The notes: a model not told the origin generated them from the letters alone. Positions 4,671 to 58,162 are shown, counted from the first letter of the whole stretch. The stretch: 58,162 bases of DNA, filler included, from Nemertoderma westbladi (GCA_032718475.1; 2 parts of 2 records of this genome joined end to end with filler, not necessarily neighbours in it); one strand, 5' to 3'. A program made the numbers and translations.

Positions 4671-6398
4671 GCTTATATACGATTGATAGTTGGCTCTGGA
4701 TAGGTGTCTCTCTTTAAACAATATTTACAAGGTGGCAGCAAGGTTGACTCGATTTCTCCATGTTTTGAACTGAAAAGACGACACTGAAGCTCGTTCACGT
4801 CATTAACTTCTGACATTCATGTAAAGCAATAAGTATTATGCATAAGTCAGGTCCAAGATTAGATGATATAGTGTTTATGTTACAATGCGTTTTTCTACTT
4901 TGAGATCAACACTTTTGATAAACCTGGCATTTCAGGACATCGTTTTCATCCCTTGTATTGTATTTGAGTTGGTTGAAGGTCATGATGGCATTGATTTGTG
5001 TCCATTTATTGCCGACACCCTCATTATGATCTCGAATATGAATGTCACATACTTGATCTAGTCTTTGACGTTTGCTATTGGATACACCCCCCCCCCCCCC
5101 CCCCCACCCCCACCATCCAGTGAGACCTGCCTCTGCACTGATGTCTATATTATTCTTAACTTTCCAACACATGTTAATATTCATCATAGGCGAACATCAG
5201 AATCGCAACTATCAGAATCGTATCTAGAGATTTAGAAAGTTTTATATGACAATTATATCTCAGGTGGTCAGATATTAATGACGTGAACGTGCTTCACTAT
5301 CGTCTTTTAATCTCAAAAAGTGGAGAAATTGAGTCAACCTTGCTGCCACCTTGTAAGTATTGTTTATACACCTGTATCCAAAGCCAACTACCAAGCGTAT
5401 ATTTGGAAAAAAGTTCAGTATCCATCATCAATGTACCTTCTCCCATTATACTGTAGGTCTGTCTGTTAGATGAGGAGGATATGATAATACCTGATTGGAT
5501 CTATGTTCTTCCAGCTCCATCATCAATCCTCTCTCTCTCTCTCTGCTGTATTGAAATTGTACTATGTCATGTAAACCACTAACGCATCTGCCTACAAAAT
5601 AAACTTCATTGCATTGAGTTGTACAAATCCAAGTAATGCACCAAATGGAAGGAGGCGGAACTGGAATGAATTGATGCACTTGACACTTCAGACGATGAAG
5701 ATGATTTCTAATACAGCAATAATTGTATCACATACATTACCTACTCGACTAAGAATACTCTATTTGCTCGGATGAAATCATACCAATTAAGAATACATAC
5801 ATACAAAATTATGTATTTATTATTAAATAAAGAGGATTTAGTATTCAAATATGCCATTATCGAAGGAATCATCTTTGCAGAAATCATCTAGGAACAATTA
5901 TGATAAATATATAAATTGAAGTAGTGAATATACTAAAAGAACTAACCTCTCTTTTGTGGTAGGTGTCAAGTCATTTGTTTGTGTCATATCTGAGTCATCT
6001 TCAATTGCATCTGTAGTGATAGTCATGATAACCTGTGAAGGAGTGTTGTCTGAAATGCCATTTAGATGTCACTTGTTATTTTAAAGTGATTTGTAGTCAA
6101 ATCTTGATTGTTTTTTATTGACATAAATATATATAGTGTAAATAAATGTATAGTGTTTTGGTTTATGATTTACTGTTTTTAAATTATTTTACATTATGTA
6201 CTGTGCAAATATAATTAGTGGCAGTGGTTTTCTAAGTAGTAGTTTGTATCACTAATGTAGTAAGTTCATTTATTTATTTGTGCTATTTACTATATACTCT
6301 CTTGACTCACTGTTGACTTAGGCATATGAAATGTTTTGACAAAAATCTTAAAAATTCTGAAGTATTAATTTTATAATTTTTTTATGCTTAAAATATAG

Positions 6399-6524
6399 AA
6401 GAACAACAACACAATGAATGCAGTGGATCTAAGAGTCAGTGGTATGACAGAGACGATCCTTCAGGAACTGGAGACTACGAGGTTCTTAAGGGACTCATGT
6501 CAACAAATGCCCAAGCTAAAGAAT
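6399..6524 (+). CDS. CysD (Mucin2_WxxW) domain exon A, copy 1
   Basis: The tag| acceptor is followed by EQQHNECSGSKSQWYDRDDPSGTGDYEVLKGLMSTNAQAKE, containing the W-x-DRDDPSGTGDYE CysD signature. The donor AAT|GTTAGA is weak but has the right phase. Confidence 0.85.
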
Positions 6525-24500: not shown

Positions 24501-27500
24501 AAAAATGTAAAAAGTTTAAATTATATTCCACTTTTGAGTACTAATGAATGTAAAGTAAATTTAAGTAATCTTCCAGTTGAACCAACTGATGTTCAACAAT
24601 CCATTATAGAAAAGACCATATAATAGGTGTGCGAGGCAGGCAGTGCAGTTCATAAAATATGCGGCATAAATTTATTTGATCTTATAATAATGTATTGAAT
24701 GAACCCTGCGAAAACTAGAACTAAAACTAGTGAGCATATTATTATTGTTAATCTGTTATTTGAACATCATGGATGGGCTACCCATAACCATACATTTTTA
24801 GCTCTATCCAGTTAAATATGTACGTACATTTGCGATAATATTAGAGAATACTATTATATATAATGAAATTGTATATAATAATAATTTTATAGTGAATCCT
24901 TGCCATGGTATTGATTGTAATGGTAAAGGAACATGTAACAATGTAGGAGGTGGTGCTGTATGTGACTGCAGCGAAGGTTATGATTCTGTTGGTGGCACTT
25001 GTGTTGGTAAGGAATATACCGGTACTTGATAATAGGCCATATATCAGTTCTTTATCATATAATTATATATAGTTTTTATTTAATATTATACTAAACAAGG
25101 GAAGTAAAGTAAAGGCGATGGTATAGATTCTATATAATTGATTTAAATATATTAATGAATATTTGTTAAGGATTTTATTTGAGATTGTCAGTTATTTGCC
25201 CATTCAAAAGGTTCCTTGTCAACATTGTCCTGGCTACCACCACGATCATTTAACCCTATCCAACCTGAGTGTTGGCGTTTTCCGCCAACATTTTATAATG
25301 CTGTGAATTTGAGATATTTAAGGGCTATGCACTTGAAAATTGTTGACTTTTCCTAAAATTTACTGGTGAATCTCGTAGTGTCATTTATTTTTTTGTGCGA
25401 TTTTTAGTTTTTTTGCAAATGAGAATTTGTCAAAGGGAAGTCGAGAATTTTATCCAAATTTACTAAAATAATTCTTGGTGCTGTCACAATATTCCTAAGT
25501 TCTTAATTAATGTGATTCTGGTTGGACAATGCCTTAGCCTTGACACCCAATCAAATACCAAACTATTCAACCAGTTTTACCTGCCAGACAGATATTATTG
25601 AATTGAATTAAATTACAAGTGAAGGTAGATAAGGCATTGTGTTTGTTTACCTCATGCTGGAATTGAGATACCTAAAACACAGCTGGATAGAAAACTGGGT
25701 TGAGATCTGTAGCCAAGTTATCATCTAAGGATGTATTGAATTAAGTCACCAGGAGTCTGAAACTGCCTCAAGCAAAATAGCAAATTAGGTTGGCTTCCCA
25801 GGTTGCTGTTGCAGCATGCAGACAAGCTAATATTGTCTGACCACTTTATTCCAATTATTTACCAATCTTTGTAGTAGTGTACAGAATAGCCCCCAGCCAT
25901 CTGTCCTTTACTAGACTATAATATGAAACACTAAACCCAACATCTCATACAAGGTAGGAGGAGGGAGTAATTTGGTAAAGATAGGCAAATAGCAACTCTT
26001 TCCATTGAAACTATATGATATATTTTTTGAATGGTGCACTCTAATTAATTATTTAAATATTGGATAGTTAGCCATAATATTTTACATTAATTTAAAATCC
26101 ACTATATGCTCCATATATGTGTCTGTTTCCATGCGAAAACGCAACTAATTTTGAACATTTCTACCTCATTCAAAATGTATTCAAAATTGTTGGCAGAAAA
26201 CGCCAACACCCAGGTTGAATCTCGGATAGATTAGCCCAGGTTGAATAGGGTTAAACTGTTTTCATTCCATTCCAAATCCATCTCCATTACAGGATTAGGT
26301 TGAATCTTGGATTGGCTTATATTGATGTTCCATAGTCATGTAGGAATTTACTCCTTTCTGAGTAAGATTGATGCAATAACTCAACTTAAGAAAATAAGTA
26401 AATATATATTCCCCCTTATAACAATGTATGAAACATTGCGAAATATGTGGTCAGAAAAAATATATTGTTAATATGTCATTTGAAGATCATGGATGGACAA
26501 GGCAACCCATAAAATTAACTGGCATGGCCTGTTTTTTATCCACAGTTTTAGCTCTATCTAGTTAAAAATGTACATATGAGGTTATATATAAAAATATCAC
26601 AAAATTATAGTAATTGTAATATAATTGGAACGAAGTCCGACTTCCACTTTCCATTGTCCAGACTTCCAGATTTCCACAACAGGTCATTCATCATCAGTTT
26701 ATTGAGTTGTTTGTTGGCCTGTTTGGATATATAGCAGACTTACGACCTCCAAATATGAAAGAGCAAGCTTGCCTTGCTAAACTAAACTATCTAGGGTATG
26801 GAAATCATCTTGAATAAAGCCTTCTCTGAAGGTAAGGTCTTTTTCCAGGCAGCAGTAAGCTTCTGTTGTTGCGGATGCTTCTCAGGTTTCATCGCATAAT
26901 ATACAATGCCCACTTAACAATCAAGGAACTGTACAATCTCGGTAGCGACCGAGAATTGACACAGCCGAGGGCCACCCAGCAGGCACTGGAGAGGTGACTT
27001 ACCGGTCACTATAGAGCAGCCAGGCGAGGGAAAATGTTGTGGTCAGCCATTGACATTCCCGCAACGTCTTTTGAAAAACCCTGATCTTGATAATGCAGAT
27101 GGATTGGAAGTTATATTGCTGATTGCGAACAGTGGAGAGGTATTGCGTGGCATAGCCATCCCAGTAGTATGGCCAATGTATATATGTATTCGTACATAGA
27201 AGTCCCTTTCAAAATTCTGGAAGCTGCTGCGCTGAAGAGGCTCAACCCTTTGCTGATATCAAACCAAATCGCTACTCTATCTCTGGATATTTGAATCATT
27301 TTTTTTTTTTTAATGTTCTTCATGCATTTTGCATTGTTCATTTTTTAATACTATAATAAAATTATATCATATTCTAGAACATTAATCAACATTAAATAAT
27401 GGAAAATTGCAAGTAAAAATTCTCGAAATTTGGTCGTATTGGGAGGAGGGAGGGGTTGGGGGTGGGGATGGTGGTTTGGGCTTTGGGTCCCTGAATATCG

Positions 27501-28710: not shown

Positions 28711-28881
28711 CTAGTCTGCACTGTATGTCATTTGGTATTGCAGTACAGTATTGTAGGTGTAGCTGTCCTGTACTGCAGTACTGCTGTGTTATGCTGTAGG
28801 CTCTATTCATCACATCACGCGTCAATCTGGCAATTTTGACAAACTCAGAGAGTGGACTGGAGCTGGACTACCTGAACCGGT

Positions 28882-30447
28882 ATGGCAATGGCATCTAATG
28901 AGGACTTATTTCTCGACAAAATTGGCAACGACATGAGCAACAACTCCATCGATGTGCCGATGTGGAACTGCTCCTGCAGTCTCCATCTCTGCTCCCCGCA
29001 CACCACATGTCTCACGCCGAGCATGTGCCACTCCACTGTAATTCTCAACAGCACAAGCGGCGTGTTTGCGGGAAGTAAAGGTTGCCTCGATGTACCCCAT
29101 CAGGCGAACATGCAATGCAATGCGAAAAATACATCGAAAATCGAAACTATATGCTGTAAGGAAGATATGTGTAACGATAAGGTCACTCATACATTACGTG
29201 GATCCAAACCGGATGTCTTGAATCCGGTCTCACACCCTCCCAATTATCTCCCCGCCTTCATTATCGTTCCCTTTGTCGTTATAATCATCTTTGTGGTCGC
29301 CCTCATTTACTTTATAAAACGACACCGACGGGAGAAGCGTTCGGCTGATAGGGTCCGCGGGGAGAGAGAGTTGCCTCGCGAGTTGTTGGGACCACTGGTT
29401 CCCGCGGGGGATTCAACCCTCCAGGACATCTGCGGCCAGTCGTGCACGAGCGGGAGCGGCTCGGGGCTGCCGGTGTTGGCGCAGCGCACTGTCGCTCGCG
29501 CGGTCACGCTGCAACGATGCGTCGGGAAGGGACGTTACGGGGAGGTTTGGCGCGGCGTGTGGCACGGCGAGTCGGTGGCCGTTAAGATATTCTACTCGAG
29601 GGACGAAGCCTCGTGGTCCCGCGAAACGGAGATCTACAACACGGTGTTGCTGCGACACGAGAACGTCTTGGGTTACATCGCGAGCGACATGATTTCCCGT
29701 AACTCGTGCACGCAGCTGTGGTTGATGACGCACTTCCACGAGAACGGATCCTTGTTCGACTTTCTCGGGCGGACGCAACTCACTCCGGAGCTCGCCGTCC
29801 AGATGGCCTACTCTACCATCTCCGGACTCAACCACCTTCACACCGAGATATTCGGGACCCAGGGTAAACCAGCGATCGCGCACAGAGACCTCAAGTCGAA
29901 GAACATCTTAGTTAAAGGGAATTTGGATTGTTGCGTCGCTGATTTGGGTTTAGCGGTCACTCATTCTCAATCGTCCGGCCACATCGACCTCGGGAGTAAC
30001 AACAAGGTCGGCACTAAGCGATACATGGCCCCGGAGATCCTCTCGGACTCCCTCCAGACGTGGCGCTTCGACGCGTACAAAGAGGCGGACATCTACGCGT
30101 TCGGGTTGGTCCTGTGGGAGGTGGCGAGTCGCACGGTGACCCGGGGCACCGGACACCCGTATCTGGACGGACATCGGCCGCCGTACTGGGACGCGGTGGG
30201 GGCGGATCCCTCCTTCGAGTTGATGCATCGGATCGTGTGCGCGGAAGGGAAGCGGCCCACCGTGCCGAACGGGTGGGCCAGCGAGCCGACACTGTGTCGC
30301 ATCGGGAAGGTCATAGAGGAATGTTGGGCGGGGAATCCCGCGGTTAGACTCACGTCGCTGAGGATCAAAAAGTCCTTATTGGAATTATCGTACACCTTCG
30401 TAGACAAGAAGGATTCCTACCCGAATCTACACGATATGATTATATAA
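28882..30447 (+). CDS. ACVR1: TGF-beta/BMP type I receptor, ALK1/2 (ACVR1/saxophone) subfamily; uninterrupted 521-aa ORF
   Basis: 10-Cys ectodomain ending in CCKEDMCN; TM helix AFIIVPFVVIIIFVVALIYF; GS box TSGSGSG; kinase motifs GKGRYGEV, VAVK, HRDLKSKN, DLG, GTKRYMAPE. The L45 loop SDMISRNSCTQ is of ALK1/2 type. Confidence 0.95.
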   Translation: MAMASNEDLFLDKIGNDMSNNSIDVPMWNCSCSLHLCSPHTTCLTPSMCHSTVILNSTSGVFAGSKGCLDVPHQANMQCNAKNTSKIETICCKEDMCNDKVTHTLRGSKPDVLNPVSHPPNYLPAFIIVPFVVIIIFVVALIYFIKRHRREKRSADRVRGERELPRELLGPLVPAGDSTLQDICGQSCTSGSGSGLPVLAQRTVARAVTLQRCVGKGRYGEVWRGVWHGESVAVKIFYSRDEASWSRETEIYNTVLLRHENVLGYIASDMISRNSCTQLWLMTHFHENGSLFDFLGRTQLTPELAVQMAYSTISGLNHLHTEIFGTQGKPAIAHRDLKSKNILVKGNLDCCVADLGLAVTHSQSSGHIDLGSNNKVGTKRYMAPEILSDSLQTWRFDAYKEADIYAFGLVLWEVASRTVTRGTGHPYLDGHRPPYWDAVGADPSFELMHRIVCAEGKRPTVPNGWASEPTLCRIGKVIEECWAGNPAVRLTSLRIKKSLLELSYTFVDKKDSYPNLHDMII

Positions 30448-35397: not shown

Positions 35398-36127
35398 GTT
35401 GATGATTAGTATTGGAACATAAAATATTAATTTATTATTTGATTTATTCATTGTAGCGAGTGGTTAACGACGTCCATGTAGGCCTACTGTAGGGATGAGC
35501 ACAGTGGCAGTAGATGATGGTATTGGCAGATAAATTGCGCGGACACATCCAGGTAGTGTTTCCACGTCTACCTTTTACCTGAGCCGCCAGCTGAATGGTT
35601 AGAGGGTCAGACTTCCGGAGGTCACCAGTTCGATTCCACCTGGACGTCTTGTCGATGCAAAGCTTTGCCCAACAAAAGATATAAAAATATTTATTGGATC
35701 ATAATATATCATTTGGCACGAAGTAGAGCGTGATTAACCACCTCAAACAGCAGGCTGAACGACTTCAAGGGGAGTTTTTCACTTTCACTTACACACATTT
35801 CGCCTTCTAGCGTTAGACTGTGGAACTACAGTACATATTTCTCAGCTTCCACACAAAGATACGAGGCTTATGATTTAGTACAGTACATGTCAAGTTTCAG
35901 CTAGAGCGGATCATAAAGAAACAAATGATTACGTTTAAATTACCAGATAGGGGCAATCAAAATTCATCCCTCTCCAGGGGAAAAATAATAGCTGATTAGG
36001 CCTACACTCAAAAAAACTGTAAACTATTTTATTAACTTTAGTTTACCGTTTTGGTTAGGATAACGTACCCTACAGTACTACTGTAATGTAACCTTATGGT
36101 TTCCCTTAATGAATTGATCCCCCCCCC

Positions 36128-37880
36128 CAGCCCCAGGCATGGAAATCGATCAATCTGCTTACTGGGCGGAAAAGCCAACCAACCACCAAGGTTAAGGCTG
36201 AATCACCAGCCGATCGCCTCAATGGTTGGAAAGCCCACTTTGAAAAGCTCCTCAATAATGACAGGGTATTGCCTGATAACTTTATAGAAGTAAAGGTGTC
36301 TGAGTCTGTACTCCCAGATATTCCCATTGGCGATATCTCCTTTGCAGAAGTGAAGGCTGCTGCAAAGAGCATTAAGACCAATCGTGCCAGTGGAGTAGAT
36401 GGTGTTCCCCCTGAGGTCTTTAAAATACCTGAGTGTTTAAAGCTCATCTATCCCATCATAGTAGACATGTACCGTACAACAAGAGTCCCACAAGAAATGA
36501 AAACAAATAAGTTGGTGCCAGTTCCCAAGAAGGGCAACCTAACACTCTATGGTTCTTTTCGGGGAATCTCATTGATCTCGATTGCTGCAAAACTATACAA
36601 TAGAATTCTATTAAATCGCATCAGGGATCCCATTGAGAGACTGCTACGTGGAAATCAGAATGGGTTCCGTAAAGGTCGTGGGACCATGGAGCCCATTTTG
36701 GCACTTAGAAGGATAATTGAAGAGTTATCAAAAAAGAAAGACAGGCATCTGGCTGTTATCTTTGTTGACTTCTTCAAGGCCTTTGATTCAGTCTCTCGCT
36801 CACGTATGTTCAGCATACTTTCATTATATGGGATTCCTGATGAAATTATTGCAGCAATCAGATCAGTATACGATGGTTCGACAACATTTGTGTCTACTGT
36901 TGACGGTGACACAGAACCATTTGAAGTGTTATGGGGCGTCCTCCAAGGAGACACACTTTCACCATTCTTGTTCATTATTGTGGTTGACTATGTTCTACGC
37001 ATGTCCTTAGATCATCATAATGATGATGGGGTGATGATAACTCCACCTACTGGCTCCAGAAGTCGAGGAAATCCTGCCAAGTACCTAACTGATCTAGACT
37101 TTGCTGATGACTTAGGAGTACTCTCAGAATCATTAGAGGGAGCCCAGCGGCTCCTCAGCTCATTAGAACATGCTGCTTCTAGTGTTGGTCTTTTTACTAA
37201 CTCCAGAAAGACCAAAATTCTGACAGTTAACTTTGAAAGTCCTCAGCAAGTCTCTGATCGGATGAGCATAAGCTCAAAGGATGGTATGCTTGAGCATGTG
37301 GACGACTTCTGTTACCTGGGATCATGGATCCGGAAGTCAGGGGAGGACCTTCGAATACGTAAGGGAAAGGCATGGGCAGCCTTGAATAGGCTTTCCAGGA
37401 TTTGGAAGTCACCTAGAATTAATCGGAAACTTAAGGTCCGATTATTTAGAGCAGCAGTAGTTCCAGTACTCCTCTACGGGTGTCCATGCTGGGCTCTAAC
37501 TGCTGAGGACACCAAATCTCTGGATGGCACATTCACAAGAATGCTACGCCGGGTACATTGTGTCAAGTACAATGCACACTTCTCCAACCAGACACTATAT
37601 AACATTGGAGGTGTCTCATTGGTTCCCCCAAGCTTGACACTAGAACAAAATCGCCTCCGCTTTGCAGGACATTGCTTTCGCCGTGAGGACCAGCCAGTGC
37701 ATAATCTTTTACTTTGGCAGCCTTATGGAGTGAATAAGCATGGTGTATAGCCCATGACTTTCTTGAGACGCATCTTAAAGGACACTGGCCTTGAAGATGC
37801 GGATGATCTAGCAAACAGCATTCTTAAAAATGCAGCTGCAATGCAGCATGCCGATCCTAGTAGTTGGTCGATGCCTCGTG
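36128..37880 (+). mobile_element. 5'-truncated RTE-clade LINE (RT domain; premature stop at 37748-37750)
   Basis: RT motifs PVPKKGN, FRGISL, QNGFR, FVDFFKAFDSV, GVLQGDTLSP, FADD and YLGS; C-terminal RLRFAGHC. Confidence 0.93.
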
Positions 37881-43297: not shown

Positions 43298-43538
43298 ATG
43301 TACGTTGTTGTCCAATGCAATATTTCGCGCTACAAAGGTAACCTCAGACTGACTGTAGACGACAGCGACACCATCGAGACGACTGCAGCTGAGTTTTTCC
43401 GGAAGTTGGGTAGACCCCCGTTGGAAACCTCCCAGTTCGTAGTCCGCAACGATGAAGGGGAGTTACTCGAAAACAACCAGAGTTTAGCGCTATGTGCCAT
43501 AGAGGACGGCGATCGCCTGTATATTTCTTACTCCGAAG
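43298..43538 (+). CDS. Ubiquitin-like domain exon (putative ENTPD exon 1)
   Basis: acaATG start; 80 aa MYVVVQCNISRYKGNLRLTVDDSDTIETTAAEFFRKLGRPPLETSQFVVRNDEGELLENNQSLALCAIEDGDRLYISYSE. It aligns by eye to ubiquitin (LEVEPSDTIE, KEGIPP, GKQLE). The best phase-1 donor is AAG|GAAAGT. Confidence 0.7.
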
Positions 43539-46500
43539 GAAAGTTCAGTTATATAATTTATTGTTTATTTATACAACAATCTAATAGTTTATTACAGTAT
43601 TTTACAGCGGCTGTAGTTAGTAGAGGGTAGGGTAGGGTAGGCCGGGCAGCCGGGCTGTGTTTACTTACACACTATGGGTAACTGTAATTATACGTCCTGA
43701 ATTAAACAGATAAGGGTGGGGGCCGGGGGGGGGGGGGGGGGGACTGGCATAACTTCAGTTTCAGTTTTGATATTGTTCCTTATGTTCCTTATTGTTCCTT
43801 ATGTAATGTTTGTTGTTATTTAATAATTGTGTTATTTTAATGTTCCTTTTAATGTTATACTTTGAGCACCATTAAACCAATACCAATACCAATACCAGAC
43901 TGGACGCAATAAAAATTTATCTCTCTCCAGGGGAAATTGGACGCAAATAACAGTTGATTACTCTCAAAAATAAAACTATAACCTGTTCTATTGTGTTTAG
44001 TTGATTGTTTTGGTTAAAATAATGTGCCACTGTAACCTGCTCCTTTCCCTAAATTGAGAATTTAACATTGAGGCGGGATATTAATTCGCCAAGGCGGGTT
44101 TTGCGTCGAGCCCCCCCCGCCCCACCCCCCCCTGTCTCGAAATAAATATATAAACATAAGTTTATTAATTAATAGGCCTTATATGACTCTTAAGCTGTAA
44201 GCCTAACAGCTATATCAGTATATCACTGACACTTAGTTACTACTGTACTAGTGACTAGCGCCTAGGCCTACATCAGTACATCAATATTTAGATGGACCTA
44301 TGTTTTTCACAAGAATAATGATAAATTATTAATATGAAATAAATGTTTTTAAAACGAATTCTATTTATTTTAGTTAACTTATTTTAATTTACCGGTAACT
44401 TTTTTCTGAATGAGGGCCTACTTTATGAATATGTTTGAGATATTTGTGTAGCATACTTTACAAACCTACAATAACTGTACAACAATACAATACCTGTCAG
44501 CCGGTAACTATTAGGTTTCCTTGCAGATGGATCTGATGCCGATGTTGAGACCGTAGAAGTAAACTTCGGTGTTTGCTGTTGGATTGGTCTTATTCTCGTT
44601 ATAGTCGGCGTAGCTGGGATCACAACTACCGTATTTCTCAATAAATACACAACTTCCATCGTTACAAGCGTAAGTAAGCGACGGTAGCGGTCTGGTGGTC
44701 ATTATTCATCCGAAATTCTAAGAATAATTATTAATTGTAGATTCTTATTTATTATTAATATAATCGAAAATGTAAGTTCAATTATTTAAGTGGTGGCAAA
44801 AAGTGTACTTTTTTGTCCAGCGTTTTTATTTGGTGAGCGTAGCGAGACAAATACTAAAGCAAGATTTTAGTTCTTCTTACTAGATAAACCAGCGAGTTGG
44901 CTGTAAACGAAACTGCATACATTTTAAATAGATCCGGATTTATGGTATTAGAGTTATCTGGATCTCCTTCGGTGTTATTCATTTACTAATCAGTTCAATC
45001 CGAATTGTTTTTTGATTTATTTTCAGTACGGTATTGTAGTCGATGCGGGGTCCTCGCACACTAAACTCTTCGTCTACAAATGGGACGCGGCGATGCCCAA
45101 AGGTACTGGTGTGGTCAGTCAGGTCTTCCACTGCCGGAGTAACACCAGCAGACCGCTGGACCAGTACGCGGACAACCCCGGTCAGGCCGGTAAGGACATG
45201 GACGACTGTTTGGTCTTATGCACCGGGGTGATTCCCGCTGAGAAGTGGACTAATGCCAGTCTCTACCTGGGTGCAACAGCTGGGATGAGATTGTTACGGT
45301 AAGTTCGATATCTAAGTGAGTAAATCGTCATTATTTAGAGAGTTTGTAGACGCGTTGCAATACATTATATGTCTGGTTGGTCGTGGTCGTCTACTGTCTT
45401 CATCACTGGGATAAACCAGAGAATAATGGCCCAATTTTAGCTTTTTAATGGTCAATTTTTTGGGAGGTGGGGGTGGAGGGGTGGTGATGATAAAGATATA
45501 TAATTAGAATTATTTACAAAGTTGAGATTTTTTCATATTTTACTACTAATTACAATAACTATAAAAGTATTTATAATCTATCACTTATGTAATGTATGTC
45601 CGCCAACCCACCAGGCCGACAATCCGCCAACCCAGCAGTCCGCCAACCCAGCAGTCCGCCAACCCACCAGTCCGACAATCCGCCAACCCAGCAGTCCGCC
45701 AACCCAGCAGTCCGCCAACCCAGCAGTCCGCCAACCCACCAGGCCGACAATCCGCCAACCCAGCAGTCCGCCAACCCACCAGGCCGACAATCCGCCAACC
45801 CAGCAGTCCGCCAACCCAGCAGTCCGCCAACCCAGCAGTCCGCCAACCCACCAGTCCGACAATCCGCCAACCCAGCAGTCCGCCAACCCAGCAGTCCGCC
45901 AACCCACCAGTCCGACAATCCGCCAACCCACCAGTCCGACAATCCGCCAACCCAGCAGTCCGACAACCCAGCAAAGTCCGACAATCTACTGCCATGCACT
46001 CCACCTACCAGCCAAATCGACGCCGACAGTCTGTTCATGTGTGCTGTGAAAAGTATATAAATGATGGAACTGTAAAAAGGGACATTACAGGCACTATAGC
46101 TTGTCCCACTTGTTTATGGACTTGTAATTTCTTGTATGGGAGCATTATAATCATGTCAGTGTCCATGTCTTATAGACAATTAATTCACATGGCTTTCAAA
46201 CGGTTATAACAATGTGGATAAATAATGAAACCATTCTTTAGGTCCCTTGTTAACCGAAAAGTAATTTTATTGTGAACACCCATAAAATACAATTTTTTCA
46301 GCTTTCAACCTAAAAGTCAGTATGACAACTATAGATCCACTGCCCTCCAAAATAGCTTCCACGTAGTTTTTTATGCTCCATTTGTGTCAGAACATTTTAC
46401 TGCATCAAATTTCATTGATCCAATGGCTAAATATTGCATCAACATCCCCTAAAGTCATTTGGGCCAGAATTCTCCGGTTTCACCCCACTGTCTTCATTTC

Positions 46501-49500
46501 TTGACACCATCCGCGCTGGTTCGTTTTAGTTTAAGCCCGATGATTTTATATTATCCTAGGTAATTTCATACTGTTCTTGTTATGTAATGTATTTATATAT
46601 AGTTTATTTTGGGTGCGGTGTCGGTGTGTGATTTAATTCAATTTCCGTGTGAATAATACACCGTAATCTCCATATTAGGTCTGTTAATGTACAGTTTCGG
46701 GTATTTTCTTTGATCTGTGAACAGCTTTCCGCAATTCAGATAATTCAATAACTCTATATTTACCTGACAGGGGAGCGGGGAAGCTTTGCTTGACGCTTTC
46801 AAAACTCACCCCTAGGGGTTGATGGGAGTTTTCCTGCTAAATATTATAAGATCATAATTTCCGATTCATCGAAGCCAATAATCCAAAACTTGTAAATCTT
46901 GAATATATTGTATTTTATAATCAAAAACTTTTAGTTAATGAAATCAACTACACGTTGCCGGTCACAGACGCGGTTCTCACCAAAGTATAAATAATAATAT
47001 CTTTATAAATTAATGCGAGAACTTCTAGTTACATTGCCGACGTTTTATAAACAATGAACTTAAACACTTTTACACTAGAAAACACGTTTTAAAGTATTTA
47101 TAACGCGTACATCATTTAACCCTATTACCACGGGGTGATTGACCATTAGCAGCACTGGCGGGGGGTCGATCGTCATCCAATAAAATCCTACGAAATTTGG
47201 GCTGAAGGTGAAAAAATTATCGAAGAACATTTTAAAATCCAAAAAAAATGAAAATTTATTAAGGGGCTGGGTATAATAATTTTCATGAAAAATAGAAGTA
47301 GTCCTAGGACAAAATATACATTTTTTTGATATTCTAAAAACTGATAGTGTGGCATTGTAGTCTAGCATTAGTAGGGTTTTCACTACGCTGAATCGAATGT
47401 GATTATATTCCATTTCCGAAAATTGAACTGGATGCTATTTTTCGTGCACCTAAGAAGTGGGCGTGGCACTTCAAATTTTGAAAAATACGAGATTCGAAAA
47501 ATAAACCAAAGTTGAGATTTCAACGCACATTTATAGGTTTTCTGGACCGCTGAATCTTTTGAAAGTATTATAGAAGCCTGAAGACTTAGTGGTTCGGCAT
47601 TTTTGGTGCACCAAAATTAGGGAGTGGCACTTATTCAAATTTTGAAAAAGTACCACGCCCTAATTGTGGTGTACCAATAATGACGTACCACTAAGACTTG
47701 AAGCTTCAATATTACTTTCAATTGATTCAGCGGTCCAGATAACCTATAAAAATGGGTTGAAATGAAAACCTTGTGGTATTTTCTGAATATCGTAATTTTG
47801 AAAATTTGAAGTAAGCCTACTTGCCACATCCTAATTTTGGTGCACCAAAAATAATGTACCACTAAGAATTGAGTCTTATATATTACTTTCAATCGATTAA
47901 GCAGGCCAGAAAACCCATAAAAATGCGTTGAAATCAAAACTTCGGAGTATTTAACGAATATTGCAATTTTGAAAATTTGAAATGCCACGCCCTAATTTTA
48001 GTGCACCAAAAATGACGTACCACTTCCCTTACATACTTATATAGAGTAGTAGAGTGCTCCATACGAATCAGAATCAATAAAAAAAGCCTCAACATACATT
48101 ACTAACTCTCAAATGACCTTGTAAAATTCGAAAAATTTTAAAAAAAATATCTGCTTGGGACCAACACTATGTTTACCCTCATGGTGCTATCCCTTAATAT
48201 TACATATTACAAATTTTTGGGGCGAGCCACGAAAGTAAGCGAGCTTAGCATACGGGTACCACTAACTCAATCGGTGTGTCTGTCGTTCTGTTGTTCTGTC
48301 GATCTGTCGTGTTAAATTTTAAACGTTAATAACTCAGCCAAAATGTTAATGAAATTTATCCAAACTTGGTACACATGTAGTCTGGCAATAGCTTCGAATT
48401 TTTTCAAGTTGAATTTCCGTGTGGCCTTCGAGAAGTACCCCATTCCATTATAGTTTTTAATTAGTTCAAGTGATTTGCTTTAAGAAATGTGTCTTTAATT
48501 GATCTAAACATTATTAACTTATTAAAATGCCCCTTCTCCCCACTGTACTTCCATCTGCCTCATTTCATTTGCTATTGCCTAGCTGGGAATCAGTCCACCT
48601 CACCACCTGGAATCAGTCCACCTCACCACACTACTCGAACAAGGGAATCAGTCCACCTCACCACAAACTCGAACAAAGGTTGATTACATCTATAGGACGG
48701 GCAGCATAAGGAGCCAGACTAATAAGACAGCTTGCTTATTGTTTATTTCGCAAAATGATTGGCTAGAGTATTTAATGGTGATTCTTTAGAAATAGCTAAT
48801 TTCGTACCGGTAGAGGCATGGCAGTATCAATACTATCAGCATAAGGTGAGTTTATATTTCTTACAAATAGCTAATTTCGTACCGGTAGAGGCATGGCAGT
48901 ATCAATACTATCAGCATAAGGTGAGTTTATATTTCTTACAAATAGCTAATTTCGTACCGGTAGAGGCATGGCAGTATCAATACTATCAGCATAAGGTGAG
49001 TTTATATTTCTTACAAATAGCTAATTTCGTACCGGTAGAGGCATGGCAGTATCAATACTATCAGCATAAGGTGAGTTTATATTTCTTACAAATAGCTAAT
49101 TTCGTACCGGTAGAGGCATGGCAGTATCAATACTATCAGCATAAGGTGAGTTTATATTTCTTACAAATAGCTAATTTCGTACCGGTAGAGGCATGGCAGT
49201 ATCAATACTATCAGCATAAGGTGAGTTTATATTTCTTACAAATAGCTAATTTCGTACCGGTAGAGGCATGGCAGTATCAATACTATCAGCATAAGGTGAG
49301 TTTATATTTCTTACAAATAGCTAATTTCGTACCGGTAGAGGCATGGCAGTATCAATACTATCAGCATAAGGTGAGTTTATATTTCTTACAAATGGGGTCG
49401 CCTCCACGCCTAAAATATTTATTCTATTACTTCATGAGTTTAACATGTTACCAATAACATGAGTTTATTGATTTCTTTGTTGGTTAAGTGGGATTAGTCC

Positions 49501-52128
49501 TACAATGCGCCAATAAAAGATAAGTTATTTTCGGTAAAATAAACTTATCATTCGAGGTTAAGACCCCTAGATCCCTTCCTATAATAAACGAAACATTGGG
49601 CAAAGTACCGTCTGTACAAGACTGTTATTATTTTAATGTTGTAATGAGTTACGAGCATAAGCATGGTAGTCTAATAAGTAATAACGTAATGAGAACCCAA
49701 TAGTTGTCAATGTTGAGCAGACAGCTATCTCAATTACACTGCTACTTACTTACCTCCACACTGAAGCTCCAAAAGGATGTGGCAACGATATTCTGGGATG
49801 GGCTAGCCAGTATGATAATAGTATATAGTATAATACTGTAGGGCCTATGTTAAAAAAGTTTGTTAGAAATGTATCTACTCATACAATTCTAAACGAAATA
49901 AAGCGAAATTTTGCATAAAGCATGTCCAATAGAAGCTCCCTATGGGGTGTCGACAGAATTTTGATTGAGTGAATTCTACAATTATGATCGTTCATTCTAG
50001 AATTAATTTCACTGTTGCAAGGCAACCAACAGGTCCCTCGCAACCAAAACCTTACATACACAACTAGGTCCGTAATGAACCTATCATCAAAGTTTCATCC
50101 AATTTCATCAACATTAAGTGCAAGAAGTTGTGTGTACAACCAAACACACAAACAACCAAAATGACAAATTTTATGTTAATACCTCTGCCTTTCATCAATC
50201 CTGTGTGCGCCTTTGGGTTGGGGTGGTGCAGATTAAAAGGGAGACTAAGAGGGGGGGGGGGGGGGGGGGGGCTTTTAGCTCTCTTTGATTTACTGGTGTT
50301 TGATTAAATTTATTAGATACCGAGTTTGTGATACAGTAGAATCGCTCAATATTAATATGTATCTCATAACTGAGCCTCGTGCTGTGCGAAGGCCCCACGA
50401 ACGTGTACAATATACGTTAATCTGTCAACCTAAACAACCCGCTGCATTATTTTTAATTAAAGACATACTTACATTATATTATACTGTCGGTTTTTAATAA
50501 TGTTTAGTATTTTGTGAGAAAAGGGACCTTAACAGTTTATTCGTAAATTGAGTTTAATTGGGTTGATTTCTGATAGATTATTTTTTTGGCAGTATCTTGA
50601 AACTAAAAGCATTCGACTTGGTCAACTATTCGCAAAGTTAACTTGTGCAAATGGTACCTGGTTAATAGCCAATTTTCAGAAACTGAGAAAACTCACTTTA
50701 AAGTTGTCAATCTTGTTGATCTTCTTTATCTGTAGGTACACTATGTATGTATGTATGTTTGTATGTCTGTTAAAAAAATAAGAAATGGCCACCAATTAAC
50801 TAAAATTTCCGCCTTTGTGTTATTTCTGATCACTGATTTCAATTCCGATGCCAGTGTTCACGTTTGATGTAATATAGTCCGTCTGCATTCCTCTCTGTCG
50901 GTTTGTCTGTCAAAGGACAAACAGACAGCCTGTTGTTGGTCTGGTATGAAAACTGCCATCAAAATTAACCTAGGAAAATTATATTAAACTAGGAAAACCC
51001 CATATCAGAAATTTTAGCTAGATGGTGGTTCCTTATTTTTGACAGACAGATTGATGTACAGACAATCGGAAAACTAGAAGATGAAGTAAAATTTTGTCAG
51101 CATATTTGAAATCTCCATTAAATTTTAACTAAGAATATTGAAAAAAAATTTCAAAAAAATGTTAAATAATTTTCAATTGCAATTATCTCAGTTTTAATTT
51201 TAGGACTAAGGTCCATTTTCCCATGGAACGCCACATATTTACATAATTAATAAAATGTTAACATATCACCTGTTTATACTTGTAGAGCTAGACACCCGGT
51301 TGCCGCTAGCAACATATTGGGCAACGTAACGTCCCACTTGTCCAACTACAACTTCCAACTGAAGGATGTGTCTATACTGCCCGGGGACCAGGAAGCTGTT
51401 TACGGTTGGATAACAGCGAACTTTATCACCGATCGGATAGAGACAGACACCTACAGACTTTCAGCACATCTACAGCAGCTACCATCGTGGCTTCAAGGTC
51501 AGGTTATTTTTATTTCTAAATTACAGTAGTTATTCTTGTTAACTCTGTATATACAGTAACTGGTTGAATATTGGAAATTTGCATAATTGAAAATCGATGT
51601 TCGAATTCGATTAAATGAAACAAAATGCTGAAACGCTTAAGGGATGGAGGCAGGGGGGGGGGGGGGGTCGAATTTCGTGAAAAAAATCATTTTTTTTTAT
51701 TATTTCATTAAGACCGAAATTTTATGGAGATTTCAAATATTTACGCGGCTTCGCAATATCGCTTTTAGTTTTCTAGATGTTGGGTTTTTTTTCACTACTT
51801 GCACGTTTCGTACCATATTCTGTCTAATTACGCCAATTTTAATACTTGTGGGGTTTTTGAGGTCGATGAATCCGATGGTAACACTTTTAGAAAAATCTGA
51901 ACCAAGTCATGCCTGTTATTTTTTACTGTTTTTTTGTAGTACTTGCACTTTTTCGTTCTATATCAAAATTTCAAAATGATGGACAAACAGACATACATAC
52001 AGACACGAAGCCTATAGATTCTGCCAAACACAAAAATAACATCAGAAATGAAATCTCCGCCCAGAAAACCCCAAAACAGATATTTTAGTTAGGCAATGTG
52101 ATTTATTATAATTTGACGGACAACTAGC

Positions 52129-52168
<40 letters not shown>

Positions 52169-55100
52169 TGATAGACAGACAGCCTAGATTCCACCAAACT
52201 TAATAATGGCCTACTTAAATACGGCCTGCCGAATGGCAGCAAGGCCAAAAAATTAGTGGGTCGATTTTTCAAAGTTGTCGTGGTGGTTTATATATTTGGG
52301 TAAAGGCAATCAAGTTGTTGTATATTATCTGAAATTTTATGGAGAATTCAAATATGCTATTGGTTTTGTCATACCTTTTTTAGTTTTCGATATATTTCAC
52401 GAAAACGAATGGGTACCCCAAAAGTGGGTTCATCGTGAAAGGTTCAATAAACCACAATCTTTAAAACGCACTCAGTCACCCATCACTTGCGACCTATAAA
52501 GGTTCTCAAGGATGGCGAACGTGATGGAAATATTTTCCTGACGAATGGTTTATCCGGTATGCTACTTTTCACTGGGTGCCCCCAAAATTTTTTTTTTTTC
52601 GGATACATATAATACTCATTTATTTGCCATGATTTAGAAAAAAAACCCTGAAAAAAGTAAAATATCCTGCTAGATTATTTGCCGTGGCAAAAAGTACTAC
52701 TTTTCATTACTATCCCACAACTGTCAGATTTATTAGACTACTCGTAGTGGAAAGTAAAATAAACTGTTTACTTGCCGTGAAAAAATTTATACTTTTTATT
52801 ACTCTCCCATAACGCGCAGATTTATAAGACTACTCGTACTGCAAAGTAAAAATGCCGCGAAGTAAATTGATTTTTCAATAGTTATTTATTGATTTCAAAC
52901 GAATAGTATCGTCACTATCGTCTAACCTCTACGTCGCCATCGTGTTCTATAATTTAAAATAATGGTAATTATTCGCAGACGATTCGCCCAGCTTCCCTAC
53001 AGCGGGGGCCCTGGACCTGGGAGGGGCGTCTACCCAGGTAACCTTCGAGCCAACAGCCGCCGCGAACACCAGCCTGCTGGTCCTGTACAACCGCGACTAC
53101 CACGTTTACTCCCACAGTTACCTATGCTACGGGCTGGACGAAGCTCAACGCCGATTGGCTGCTCAGTTGGCCCTGCCCGCCGTCGTTGACAATGTCTCGG
53201 AGATTGCGAACCCGTGTTTGCGGTCAGGCCACTCGGTGGTTCTCAATGGTTCCTATCTGTTCGAGGCTCCGTGCTCGAAAACGTTGCCCAACACCTCGGT
53301 GGAGTTGTTGTCGCAGCAGTTCCAGTTCGTGGGGAGCGGGAATGGGAGTGAGTGTGCTGAGGAGGTCGCTCAGCTCTTCAATACAAGGTTGGTGGTTGTC
53401 TACTGCCCCGCTAGTACGGGTTATATAGGTGTGTGTCATGTGAGGTGAGTTCTGTATTCTAACTACTTCAGCAATTAATATCGACCGAATACCGACTGGG
53501 AAATTTTGATAAATTGGATGGAAAATTTGGCAAAATTGTTAGAATTTAAAATATGGTCTTTTTGATGTGGAAATAAATATGTTAAGTTTTGATGGGAAAA
53601 TATATATGTTACATTTTGGCGGGACTGCAATGTACTACGGAACGGAACTACTTTATTTTGGGTATCGTAACTTACTTATGTAATATAAATTATATGTTTA
53701 CTGTGCAGTACCAACTAGGGATGCACAGGATATATTGTCCGTCTCCGGTATCCGACCGGATATTCGGCTGTATTTGGCCGGATAATCGAACAATACTATA
53801 TTTTAAGCATAATGTAATGCGTTAGTTACCATTACACCCACCACGATTACACTTATAGCGCTGTACCGGGTTACAAAGACCTATAAGGAAATCCGTAGCT
53901 GTTATTGGCTAATGTTGTTTGTATGCATTATTAAGAGTTTGTGAGGGCAGGTCAGACCATTGTTTATAAGGGTTCTAGAACACTTCCCTCCAAGACAATT
54001 CCCCCGGACAGTTCCTCCCCGTCAATGTGGGACACTTCCCACCAGTTTAAGTGTTAAAATTAATCTGGCATCAAAGCAATAAACAAAAGTTAAAGACTTA
54101 AAGTTAAACTAAGTTAAACTAACTAAGTTAAACTTAAAGTTACAGGACAAGTTGTATCTAGTCAAGTTTTTTCAAAATTACAAAAGAAACATTTTTATAG
54201 TCATATTTTGTTTGTTTTTATTTTTATTGGGGGCTGCCACTCCCCAAATCCCGGCATTTCCCTGTGTGCCATAATTTTTCTCTCATGTTCACCCGCGGTG
54301 AGCTTGGCTCACCTAGGTTCACCGCTGGTGAGCTTATACCACTTTAATTGAAACCATTTTTTATATTAAAGTGACCACATTCAGCCACCGTACGTACATC
54401 TAATGTTAATCTAATATAATATACGCTATTTCATAAGGTACAATTACATAATTATTCTCATAAGGTGAAGAGGACGAAATTAGCTATTACCTGTTTTATA
54501 TATTTGTTTTATATATTTGCTTTATATATAATAATATTTTATATAATTTATAGGTTAAATTGCGATAAAGTTAATTAAATAAATAAATAAATTAATTTTA
54601 TGTTTTTTATTTTAATTAATTAATTAAATTAATCCAACTTTGTTCCCATTTAAGTAACTGTCCCAAGAAATGCTGCTGTTAAACATGGATTTTACATGTT
54701 TCGTTATTAAACGAATATTAATACATAATGACCCGTAAAATAATGTCTTTCATGACCAAGATGCTATGGATAGATGTTGTAAATCTTAGTAGTGATGGAA
54801 ACAAGTCAGTGGGAAGTATGTTGTGAGTATATTTGTAACATAAAGATCCCACTTCCTTTATAAAAATTGACTGTATTGTTAGTGGGTTAAAGTTGATGTT
54901 GCCCCTAGATATGACAATTTGTTTGGCCCTTTGAGTTCCTATAGTCGCTGCCGGTTTGTCTCTATTATGATGCCTACGTTTTCTTTTGTAATGGTCGGTT
55001 TGATGCAGTATTGTTGGTTGGTAAGGGTACTGAATATGAGCTTCCACCTTGATAGGCCCAGATAGCATTACAGTAATGAAGGTATGGGTTTATTATAGTT

Positions 55101-58100
55101 TGGTAGAGTGTAGTCAGAACGTGTGGTGTTGCGAAATTTTTTACCTTGTTCAGGATACCTATGTTTCTGCTTAGTTTAATGCGGATGTTTTGATAGTGCG
55201 ATTTCCATGTTAATCTTTCATCATTGAGGACACCTAGAAATTTGATAACTTTGTGTTGTTCAATTTGTGTACCATTGATGTTAATGGCATTTTTACCAGT
55301 TTTAAGTAGGTTTCTTGTTTATTATTTGTCCTGAATATTATATAGTTACATTTTTTAGTATTTAGTGATAGTCTGTTTATTTTGAACCAAACTGAAAGTT
55401 TTTCCAGTTGGATATTTACTTCTGTTATCATTTGCTGCAAATCATTGTCGCTAGTTAATATATTTGTATCATCGGCAAATAATATAAATTTTAATTTTTC
55501 GGAGACATTGACAATATCGTTACAGTACACAATGAAAAGGAGGGGACTTAGTAGTGATCCCTGCGGTAATCCTATATTAAGTTTTCGCTTCGTTGATTGA
55601 TCGGATCCTATTGCAACAAATTGTTCTCTATCAGTAAGATAGTCTGTAATTCAGCAATCGAGGGAAAGGAGCAGGTTCAGTTCAGAGGTTACAGAGACAG
55701 GCTTTTCTAACCAAAACAATAAACGATCACTTAACCAATTGAGGGAAACCATATGGTCAGACAGTTAGCAGTCACATGGTCAGACACTCAGTTGTCACTC
55801 TATACAGCTATATAACAATAACAAAAAAAATCAGGCATTCAAGCAATAGGTACCGGTACGCCAGGCTGCAAATGGAGTGCAAAAATCGCAACGGTTGGCG
55901 TTGTGCGCGGTAAAAGTGCGCGGAATTGAAATAAAAGTGCGCGGAATTGTGTGAAAAACACCAAAAGTGCGCGGTAATCTGTGCAAAATATTAAAAGTCC
56001 AAGTGCGCGGACTGGCGGATGAGGTGTAAAAAAAGTTATAAAGTGTGTGCAAAACTGCAATTTAATGAGAAAAATTATAAAAAATTTCACTCGCTTCGCT
56101 CGCGTTTCTTTTCCATATTTTGCATTGTTAAAATAAAAAAATTTCGCTCGCTTCGCTCGCGTTTTTTTTATTTTAGACCTACTTACAGGTGACAGAGTGA
56201 CAGACTGACCTAGATGCTACATATCAAAACTTTAAATTTCACATGCTTCGCTCGCGTTTCGTTTTAATTTTACATTGTTAAAATGAAAAATTTCGCTCAC
56301 GTTTTTTTTTCATTTTGCATTGCTTAAATTTATTTTTTTTTATTTCTTTACGTTAATACAGTAATAACTGAATAAACAATACTTTTTTTGATTTATTTAT
56401 TTATTCGTATGTTCAGATGTTTGTGTGAATTGAATTGTTTTTCAGCTGGGTGTGCGCGTTTTTTCAGTCCATGCCAGGTATATTGTCAGATATTGCGCGA
56501 CTGAAAACTTGTGCGCGGGCGTTGTGCGCGGGCGTTGTGCGCGGTTCAGTGGTGGTTTGCAGCCTGGCCGGTACGCAGCTGTAGAATGACAATTGAACTG
56601 TAGAAACGGTTGAAAAGGTCGGTCCCCAAAGTAATATGACCCGGTGGTTACTCGGCCTACTACTACTACTGTACTATGTCAGCCAGACAGGCGTAAACCT
56701 TTAAACAGTAGTAGTTATAGTAAGACGGATTATCCGTTATCCGCCTCTTATTCTATAAGTAAAATGTATCCTTGAGTTAATAATCCTTTGACTTGAGTTT
56801 ATTGTTTTGATGAAACTAAAGGAACCTAAAAATCACAGGTAACTGAAAGGTTTTCTCTTTCAGACTTTTCGCCCTCTAGCGCCAGACTTGAGGACTGCGG
56901 AGCGGACCGATCACCTTCTTCATAAAGACGTAGCATGTGTGGTCTGGTAGACTTACTGTATATTCCAAGATACACTAAACAGATTAAGATCAATGAAATG
57001 GGAAAGCTTATCACTTTCATACATTTCGCCCTCTAACAGCCGACTGGAGAACTGCAGACCGATTACTGATCCCACAAATACACAGTGTCTGTTCCAGACA
57101 AGTTTCAGCTTGAATGAATCATAAATATCGGCATGAATGGGTCACAGATTTCACTTTTAAACATAGATACTAGACACTTTCGCCATCTAACGACAGACTA
57201 GAGAACTGCAGACGGATTGGCCTCCTTTGAAGGAACAGAATGATGTAGTACCAATCAGCTTGAACGGATTAAAAAAGCAAAGAAATGGGAGGACATATAA
57301 TGTTTTAACATGTTGCCCTCTAGCGGGTGACTGTTGAATTGATGGTGTCTAAAGTTGTCTACAAGTTTCTAAAATATGTCAACTTTTGGTCTTATTGATG
57401 GCTACAATTTTTCAACTCGATATCTTTAAAAGTGAAAATTTAACTGTAATCTGTGAGACTTTTAACTTTCGTTCATTGTTCTGGATTTAATTAACACGGC
57501 ACGGTAACAACCTGTGTATTTGATTTTTGTTTATTGTTTTGGTTAGGACAACGCGCCACTGCAGAATGCTCCTACGGTAGAAATTGTATAAGATGATAGC
57601 ACCGCCTACAATAGAAAGGTGACGGCCCCACTCTAGTTAGTTTATCATTACTGCGACAGACGTCTGCTCTATCCATTGCTATTATATGCACGTGCTTCCT
57701 GGAATTTAATTATCTTATTGGTTTTTGTCTGCTATTCGTTACATTACCATGTCAGACGAGGCGAGTGGCTTGGTGTGCGGCATGTTATATAATTATTAGT
57801 TAAAATGACCCTATTTCACGACCTTATTCTATTTATTATGACCTTAGCGTTATCGTGAGTTAAATGTAGGGGATATTATCAGGAATTTGTTTGTTAAGGT
57901 AAAATGACGTGAATTGGTCTGGGGGTTGCGTTAAACCGATTGTTTTTTATGCTGTAAGATATGGGTGGGTGATTGTGCGTGCCGAGGTATTAATTCGCTG
58001 AAATGGAATTTGTGACAAGTTTTACCCCCCTGTCTCCCTAATATTAAGTATAAGTACCAAAATACTTAATACTGTCACTGTCAGTAATATCGATAACTTT

Positions 58101-58162
58101 CGCATCTATACTGTATTTTTGTATGTTTCAGCGCTCCCTGCCCGAATGGCCCTTGTTCCTGG
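43298..58162 (+). CDS. ENTPD: CD39/ENTPD1/2/3/8-family ectonucleoside triphosphate diphosphohydrolase, 5' part (continues past the window end), with a predicted N-terminal ubiquitin-like domain
   Basis: Exons 43298-43538, 44527-44669, 45027-45298, 51286-51497, 52979-53387 and 58132->58162 have compatible phases (1, 0, 2, 1, 2). TM1 and apyrase conserved regions ACR1-4 are present. Confidence 0.9.
44527..44669 (+). CDS. ENTPD: ENTPD TM1 exon
   Basis: Boundaries ccttgcag| and |gtaagt; DGSDADVETVEVNFGVCCWIGLILVIVGVAGITTTVFLNKYTTSIVTS. There is no in-frame Met, so an upstream phase-1 coding exon is needed. Confidence 0.85.
45027..45298 (+). CDS. ENTPD: ENTPD exon with ACR1 and ACR2
   Basis: YGIVVDAGSSHT ... 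LYLGATAGMRLLR; boundaries tttcag| and |gtaagt. Confidence 0.95.
45596..45985. repeat. GC-rich minisatellite built from 8-bp subunits
   Basis: Mix of CCGCCAAC, CCAGCAGT, CCACCAG(G/T) and CCGACAAT forming 16- and 24-bp units. Confidence 0.95.
47455..48025. repeat. ~165-bp diverged unit in inverted and direct copies (probably inside a DNA element)
   Basis: 47455-47630 is the approximate reverse complement of 47652-47810, which recurs at 47822-47985. Confidence 0.7.
48790..49393 (+). repeat. Perfect 75-bp tandem repeat, 8 copies, in an ENTPD intron
   Basis: Unit AAATAGCTAATTTCGTACCGGTAGAGGCATGGCAGTATCAATACTATCAGCATAAGGTGAGTTTATATTTCTTAC starts at 48790, 48865 ... 49315. Confidence 0.97.
51286..51497 (+). 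CDS. ENTPD: ENTPD exon with ACR3
   Basis: ILPGDQEAVYGWITANF; boundaries ttgtag| and |gtcagg. Confidence 0.9.
52108..52182. repeat. (GACA)n microsatellite
   Basis: Run of agac/gaca tetramers. Confidence 0.85.
52979..53387 (+). CDS. ENTPD: ENTPD exon with ACR4
   Basis: GALDLGGASTQVTF, YSHSYLCYG, NPC, GSGNGSEC..LFN; boundaries ttcgcag| and |gttggt. An alternative in-frame donor lies at 53445. Confidence 0.92.
54600..55650 (-). mobile_element. CR1/L2-group LINE RT fragment
   Basis: GLPQGSLLSPLLFIVYCND..FILFADDTNI..WFKINRLSLNTKK, with frameshifts. Confidence 0.85.
55861..56567. mobile_element. hAT-like MITE
   Basis: 8-bp TSD CCGGTACG (55853-55860 and 56568-56575); perfect 12-bp TIR CCAGGCTGCAAA/TTTGCAGCCTGG; internal GTGCGCGG and TTCGCTCGC repeats. 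Confidence 0.88.
56860..57340. repeat. Diverged ~155-bp tandem repeat with a (C/T)GCC(C/A)TCTA core
   Basis: Cores at 56870, 57027, 57181 and 57314, followed by similar gact..agaactgc segments. A related copy lies at ~35801. Confidence 0.65.
58132..58162 (+). CDS. ENTPD: ENTPD next exon (truncated by the window)
   Basis: Phase-2 acceptor gtttcag| followed by (S)APCPNGPCSW, matching the CxxxxCSF segment of CD39-family enzymes. Confidence 0.8.

Follow-up and report, generated by a model that had tools for sequence, protein, structure and literature searches.

The stretch of DNA analysed here (the window) is 58,162 nt of Nemertoderma westbladi (GCA_032718475.1), two record parts joined by filler. 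It contains the 5' part of a split gene of the NTPDase1/2/3/8 type (Table 1). The six exons joined by coordinates give a stop-free frame of 436 codons. Three of them exceed the curated Pfam cut-off for GDA1_CD39 (PF01150), and the four motifs which we take to be apyrase conserved regions (ACR) 1-4 are intact. ACR5, the second membrane helix and the C-terminal tail lie 3' of the window end. The first membrane helix, TM1, spans residues 94-112, where hydropathy peaks with a mean of 2.61.

About 1 kb upstream of the TM1 exon, an ATG at 43298 with A at position -3 and an in-frame stop before it at 43235 opens a frame of 80 codons. Translation bears out the first-pass annotation of both exons: the upstream one contains the ubiquitin-like motifs and lacks a C-terminal di-glycine, and the TM1 exon has no in-frame Met and requires a phase-1 partner. 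Human ENTPD1 also has a phase-1 intron before its TM1 exon. The 80-codon ORF likely opens the coding sequence of an enzyme of the CD39 type (NTPDase1/2/3/8-like) as its first exon; joined as modelled, it gives an N-tail of 93 residues before TM1. The exon is unique within the window, and a repeat fragment was rejected on this ground.

Table 1. Coordinates of the candidate UBL-NTPDase gene and of other features in the window.
Feature	Position	Strand	Description
TGF-beta/BMP type I receptor ORF	28876..30444	+	intronless
Coding exon 1 (241 nt)	43298..43538	+	predicted ubiquitin-like beta-grasp domain, residues 1-80, and first base of split codon
Inferred non-canonical 5' splice site	43536..43544	+	AAG/GAAAGT; phase 1; 8/9 consensus positions, mismatch at +2; deduced from sequence
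Exon 2 (143 nt)	44527..44669	+	acidic linker, juxtamembrane Cys-Cys, TM1; phase 1 to phase 0
Exon 3 (272 nt)	45027..45298	+	GDA1/CD39, apyrase conserved regions 1 and 2 (motifs at residues 134, 211); PF01150, E 2e-23
C-rich minisatellite	45598..45986		intron 3
75-bp tandem array	48786..49393		intron 3
Exon 4 (212 nt)	51286..51497	+	apyrase conserved region 3 (motif at residue 252); Pfam E 3e-7
Exon 5 (409 nt)	52979..53387	+	apyrase conserved region 4 (motif at residue 302); Pfam E 1e-20
Inferred exon 6, start only	58132..58162	+	frame continues, Cys-Pro motifs as in relatives; runs off window end
Repeated block, copy 1	6287..9087		Mucin2_WxxW exon at 7155-7478
Repeated block, copy 2	21767..24623		Mucin2_WxxW exon at 22624-22914
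Near-identical ORF fragments	10060..16215		AT-rich stretch
LINE-type remnant	18140..21201		
LINE-type remnant	36113..37747		
LINE-type remnant	54974..55650		judged by eye

In Pfam, the 80-aa peptide matches only families of the ubiquitin clan (YukD, E 5e-5; ubiquitin, E 0.044), all below the curated cut-offs. A scan of 1.84 billion representatives with the ubiquitin-like domain (UBL) of the window returned 41 matches at E<=0.001. Twenty of these representatives were scanned and 19 contain a ubiquitin family, while the NTPDase profile is matched by none of the 41. Given an alignment of 39 rows (the window and 38 of the relatives described below), AlphaFold predicts the beta-grasp fold expected by the first-pass annotation with pLDDT 96 and pTM 0.84; from the single sequence the pLDDT is only 48. 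Foldseek matches ubiquitin-fold proteins with E about 1e-6 (TM-score to ubiquitin 0.73-0.83). In the VIA comparison the PDB matches reach Z about 12, with ubiquitin the best at Z 12.2 (rmsd 1.9 A, 73 aligned residues) and in practice tied with TINCR, Rad60 SLD2, kindlin F0 and YukD (Z 11.4-12.2). The beta-grasp is common to the window UBL and to Rad60 SLD2, kindlin/talin F0, YukD/EccD, TINCR and the UBLs of parkin and Rad23 (rmsd 1.4-2.4 A over 69-79 residues). However, no single one of these integral ubiquitin-fold families is clearly the closest (all tied at Z 10-12.2), and the window UBL forms a sequence family of its own. The Atlas assigns it to UBL-type clusters at 0.91-0.93; a query with the Strigamia N-terminus gave no usable match there. 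A prediction of a homodimer of two UBL copies, run without use of the alignment, scored 0.00. As modelled, the domain is a ubiquitin-type beta-grasp of no named family.

The same domain was found in other NTPDases. A search with the exon 3 protein gave 1,946 matches, and among the best 120 was the centipede model P0001 (Strigamia T1IIW9), whose residues 49-128 align with the window UBL with score 77, none of 5,000 shuffles exceeding 48. A profile built from the window and Strigamia UBLs and the start of the catalytic domain gave 2,042 matches among 7,996 scored, and again the best 120 were considered. Out of 46 N-termini inspected, which were picked by coverage or length, 40 have the UBL, and the six without it are all vertebrate. 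Overall, the order UBL-TM1-ACR1 is seen in 41 of the 206 fetched NTPDases, which is not a frequency, because the UBL was part of the query and only the best 120 matches were considered. Of these 41 relatives, 27 are proteins of 26 named species belonging to Arthropoda, Mollusca, Annelida, Nemertea, Brachiopoda and, within Chordata, amphioxus; the other 14 are sequences on contigs of 2.0-3.7 kb, inferred to be transcripts. One such contig of 2,079 bases encodes a whole UBL-NTPDase as a single intron-free ORF of 600 codons. An earlier word-indexed search for the UBL alone in longer proteins, a method of low sensitivity, found none in 56 candidates, although the profile search later found the family.

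The UBL profile built from the 41 relatives, with the window left out, scores the window at 38.6 bits (E 1e-11). The best unrelated protein, a multi-ubiquitin, scores 25.5 bits, while the other 165 NTPDases all stay below 10.8 bits, the score of the last row shown. The start Met of the family aligns with the window ATG, some 15 residues separate the UBL from TM1 in every relative, and two membrane helices are found in 37 of 40 UBL-bearing relatives, as in vertebrate E-NTPDases when the relative is complete. Domain order and start position are the same as in the window in Strigamia T1IIW9, Branchiostoma belcheri P0184, Lingula P0168, Tubulanus P0162, Owenia P0167, molluscs, odonates and pycnogonids. 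Since relatives with this order in a single ORF occur in six phyla, the UBL-TM-apyrase fusion proposed in the first-pass annotation is strongly supported. It is not peculiar to this gene, however: it is a real architecture and a widespread trait of a family which, among the fetched NTPDases, spans six invertebrate phyla including amphioxus. The relatives are mostly annotated only as ENTPD1/2/3/8-like; P0179 is named ubiquitin-like domain-containing in UniRef, and P0178, P0196 and P0183 have precomputed YukD or TUG-UBL1 matches. Two models, Strigamia P0001 and Patiria P0004, chain three and two NTPDase units, respectively, and are probably merged tandem paralogues; in Strigamia the UBL is confined to the first unit.

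The Nemertoderma copy is divergent. Its end branch in the trees described below is 1.13-1.27, and its UBL is 14-32% identical to those of the relatives, from which it differs by a 2-residue loop insertion, Phe at a helix position occupied by Cys in 40 of 41 relatives, and a longer linker (60 residues from UBL to ACR1, as against 53-58 in the relatives and 70 in one). The closest catalytic domain by identity is that of amphioxus (45% over 196 columns), and any placement of the window copy in the tree is provisional.

A further difference from the relatives is the donor of intron 1. At the exon 1 boundary proposed earlier, 43538/43539, the phase fits, but the donor is AAG/GAAAGT and not a GT site. 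It matches 8 of 9 consensus positions, compared with 7-8 of 9 for the other four donors of the gene, all of which are GT. Four GT sites could replace it in frame upstream of the stop at 43628, but each of them agrees with the consensus at only 3-4 positions. GA sites of equal quality occur only twice in 116,324 positions (both strands). Because of this match, the poor GT alternatives and the rarity of such sites, AAG/GAAAGT is almost certainly a present or former donor of intron 1, as judged from sequence. Passages in PMC7072748 and PMC5714493 describe GA donors in Eurytemora and Oikopleura with an upstream AG and a downstream A. The GA at 43539 is likewise preceded by AG and followed by A. 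Beyond these two species GA donors are very rare (14 among 222,263 human introns, a figure quoted by PMC5714493).

On balance we slightly favour removal of intron 1 through a functional GA donor at 43539; a base error or a variant of GT is possible but doubtful, and a dead site is less probable again. It might also be that exon 1 is not joined as modelled in this animal or haplotype. The GA would then be a base error or a mutated GT, with splicing at a weak cryptic GT at 43548 (same phase, three extra residues) or from a tiny alternative first exon, or the gene would be decaying. This reading, to which we attach rather little probability, draws on the rarity of GA donors and the divergence of the window copy. 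Alternative phase-1 starts are available at chance level: intron 1 contains two Met-initiated GT donors with 6 of 9 positions, and upstream an in-frame ATG accompanies 4 of the 19 donors that match at least 7 of 9 positions. On the other hand, all six exons are free of stops, the UBL is still predicted to fold with high confidence, and a GA site of such rare quality stands exactly at the expected boundary and in the expected phase. Moreover, GA use, a base error or GT variant, and the cryptic GT at 43548 all lead to a fused protein. The family fusion very probably applies to the origin of the Nemertoderma gene, and on the sequence at hand N. westbladi probably makes the fused UBL-NTPDase protein.

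With its position ahead of TM1 and without a signal peptide, the UBL would face the cytosol. The di-glycine is absent from the end of the UBL in the window and in all 41 relatives, as it is from integral (type II) ubiquitin-fold domains. A stand-alone ubiquitin-like modifier was rejected on this ground, and cleavage or conjugation is unlikely. In the reading preferred here, the UBL would be an uncleaved docking domain. Conservation within the family falls mostly on core positions. As surface residues and net charge vary, no conserved binding site stands out; the charge range of -8 to +4 (-5 in the window) also speaks against membrane binding via a basic UBL, which was rejected. The outward positions 48, 56 and 75 are hydrophobic in 28, 33 and 25 of 41 sequences, respectively, and may form another, semi-hydrophobic surface and a possible partner patch.

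One possibility is that the UBL is a built-in ubiquitin mimic. A patch of the Ile44 type would then serve to hand the enzyme over to the proteasome, to p97 or to ubiquitin receptors. Indeed, ubiquitin is among the best structural matches by both TM-score and Z, and the HMM and MAFFT alignments set Ile44 on the conserved Leu of the family. However, the three aligners differ in this register. The conserved Leu (Val49 in the window) is hydrophobic in 41 of 41 sequences, with the low entropy typical of a core position; its outward neighbour, Arg50, is Arg or Lys in 26 of 41, and position 77, equivalent to Val70, is hydrophobic in only 7 of 41. The pattern of inward and outward residues favours Arg50 as the equivalent of Ile44, which speaks, if not decisively, against a proteasome-shuttle patch. 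Although the aligners disagree on the register, the exposed hydrophobic patch of ubiquitin (Ile44/Val70) looks replaced in these UBLs. The tie of ubiquitin with the other four folds in the VIA comparison also tells against mimicry, which seems very improbable. Proteasome targeting, one of the options of the first-pass annotation, is disfavoured accordingly by the missing di-glycine and by the patch.

The C-termini of the relatives point to a different role. A terminal motif of the type YG[AST]-hydrophobic, which resembles a sorting signal, ends 32 of the 38 complete UBL-bearing tails and none of the 150 UBL-less ones, a contrast that amounts to about one independent comparison, since nearly all UBL-less sequences are vertebrate, with bird ENTPD8 strongly represented. 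Any terminal YxxPhi is found in 33 of 38 UBL-bearing and 7 of 150 UBL-less tails, and 25 of the 38 have a second YxxPhi just upstream of the terminal motif. These counts omit incomplete tails (2 of 40 UBL-bearing, 15 of 165 UBL-less) and the tandem model P0001. Among odonates, Hetaerina P0170 ends with a YGAI-type motif, while Hetaerina P0171 and Ischnura P0169 do not; the Hetaerina isoforms have the same UBL, hinting that the odonate motif is switched by alternative splicing. At least one Cys is present in the linker or at the start of TM1 in 37 of 41 relatives. The YxxPhi motif binds mu2 of the clathrin adaptor AP-2 (part of PMC6912373), and the N-tail of CD39 undergoes palmitoylation and also interacts with RanBPM, an interaction that reduces activity (part of PMC7859358).

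The tail contrast, the adaptor binding of YxxPhi, the cysteines at the membrane edge and the palmitoylation and RanBPM binding of the CD39 N-tail together favour a role in trafficking. The UBL would be a permanent docking module that, along with the YxxPhi-like C-terminal motifs of the family and the juxtamembrane cysteines, recruits a cytosolic partner or adaptor. This partner would set surface versus endolysosomal residence and hence the place where ATP and ADP are hydrolysed. We would put the chance of this proposal, which is built on sequence features, at about even.

The fusion could also be real with the UBL mainly tuning catalysis or oligomer assembly, a bound cytosolic partner acting through movements of the TM1 helix. 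The constant short spacing between UBL and TM1 fits such a coupling, as do the often hydrophobic positions 48, 56 and 75. In the consulted part of the review PMC7954995, transmembrane dynamics and oligomers are said to control NTPDase activity, and the effect of RanBPM on CD39 is of the same kind. However, control of catalysis leaves the sorting-type tail motif that accompanies the UBL unexplained, and its partner is only hypothetical; we regard it as a minority possibility. The readings are thus ranked with docking in trafficking first, allosteric or oligomer control second, a broken or differently spliced gene third and ubiquitin mimicry last.

No UBL was found in the vertebrate ENTPD1/2/3/8 sequences fetched. 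ENTPD1 (CD39), ENTPD2, ENTPD3 and ENTPD8 share with the window gene the GDA1/CD39 domain, conserved regions 1-4 and the N-terminal TM1, and the window exon 3 is up to 56% identical to vertebrate E-NTPDases among the best 120 of its 1,946 matches. The window also has juxtamembrane Cys residues, as does palmitoylated CD39. The N-tails differ: the 165 UBL-less rows, almost all vertebrate, have a median of 46 residues before ACR1, in agreement with the short vertebrate tail described in the first-pass annotation, compared with about 126-140 here. The vertebrate enzymes also differ in lacking the terminal YG[AST]-type motif.

In a tree of the catalytic domain (33 rows, 12 fewer than in the 45-row set; LG+G4, unrooted, weak backbone), vertebrate ENTPD1/2/3/8 form one clade (100/99) among the UBL-bearing rows. 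This clade lies within a larger group (86/90), to which amphioxus, spiralian sequences and the window also belong. All UBL rows fall on one side in 0% of 200 bootstrap trees. The vertebrate clade was also recovered in a quick unrooted tree of 45 rows (support 98). For the invertebrate rows that lack the UBL (Patiria P0004, Oppiella P0005, Strigamia repeats 2-3), possible reasons are an incomplete model, a real UBL-less gene or a further loss. As the UBL is present in both protostomes and amphioxus, it was likely lost in vertebrates, subject to the trees being unrooted. The arrangement would then be ancestral to protostomes and chordates, and the loss would fall on the vertebrate stem. A bolder suggestion, which we hold only tentatively, is that the ancestral bilaterian CD39 was UBL-capped, that the UBL and the C-terminal tyrosine motifs formed a single switch that shifted the enzyme between surface and endolysosomes as needed, and that vertebrates lost both together, their short tails now being under palmitoylation and RanBPM. 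If so, the control of purinergic signalling in most invertebrate phyla would rest on a mechanism that nobody has studied.

CD39, a drug target on which much work has been done, is described as an enzyme with short cytosolic tails. A literature search, which covered titles and the starts of abstracts in mainly open-access papers and no supplements, found no description of a UBL-NTPDase fusion. The term 'ubiquitin' does not appear in the E-NTPDase review PMC7954995, and a UBL domain is absent from the examined part of a study touching on CD39 evolution (PMC9857879). UBL-NTPDase is a real and apparently undescribed domain architecture of a well-known enzyme, and probably an ancient one. The sequences are already public and automatic pipelines flag a few of them. 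Two circumstances may have kept the architecture from notice: the Pfam scores below the cut-off and the restriction of Drosophila to an NTPDase6-like gene, as stated in part of PMC9738970. The presence of a UBL on CD39 relatives in six invertebrate phyla, including amphioxus, changes how the ancestral enzyme is to be pictured. It also suggests that molluscs, annelids and several groups of arthropods control extracellular ATP in an unstudied way.

Several other features of the window were observed (Table 1). Intron 3 of the NTPDase gene contains a C-rich minisatellite with 16/40/56-bp units and a 75-bp tandem array (8.1 copies, 99% matches). Each 75-bp unit has a perfect 9/9 donor (AAG/GTGAGT) and an acceptor-like stretch; the exon-like part of the unit does not match the exons of the NTPDase gene. 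The receptor ORF, with an activin-receptor ectodomain, a GS motif and a kinase, lies 13 kb upstream of the NTPDase gene on the same strand and is presumably ALK1/2-like by its motifs. A block of about 2.8 kb occurs twice (96-98% identity), each copy with a Mucin2_WxxW exon. Near-identical ORF fragments recurring every 985 bases or so in the AT-rich stretch (GC 0.28-0.29) suggest a tandem array with a long unit. Endonuclease and reverse transcriptase domains were confirmed in the first two of the three LINE-type retrotransposon remnants.
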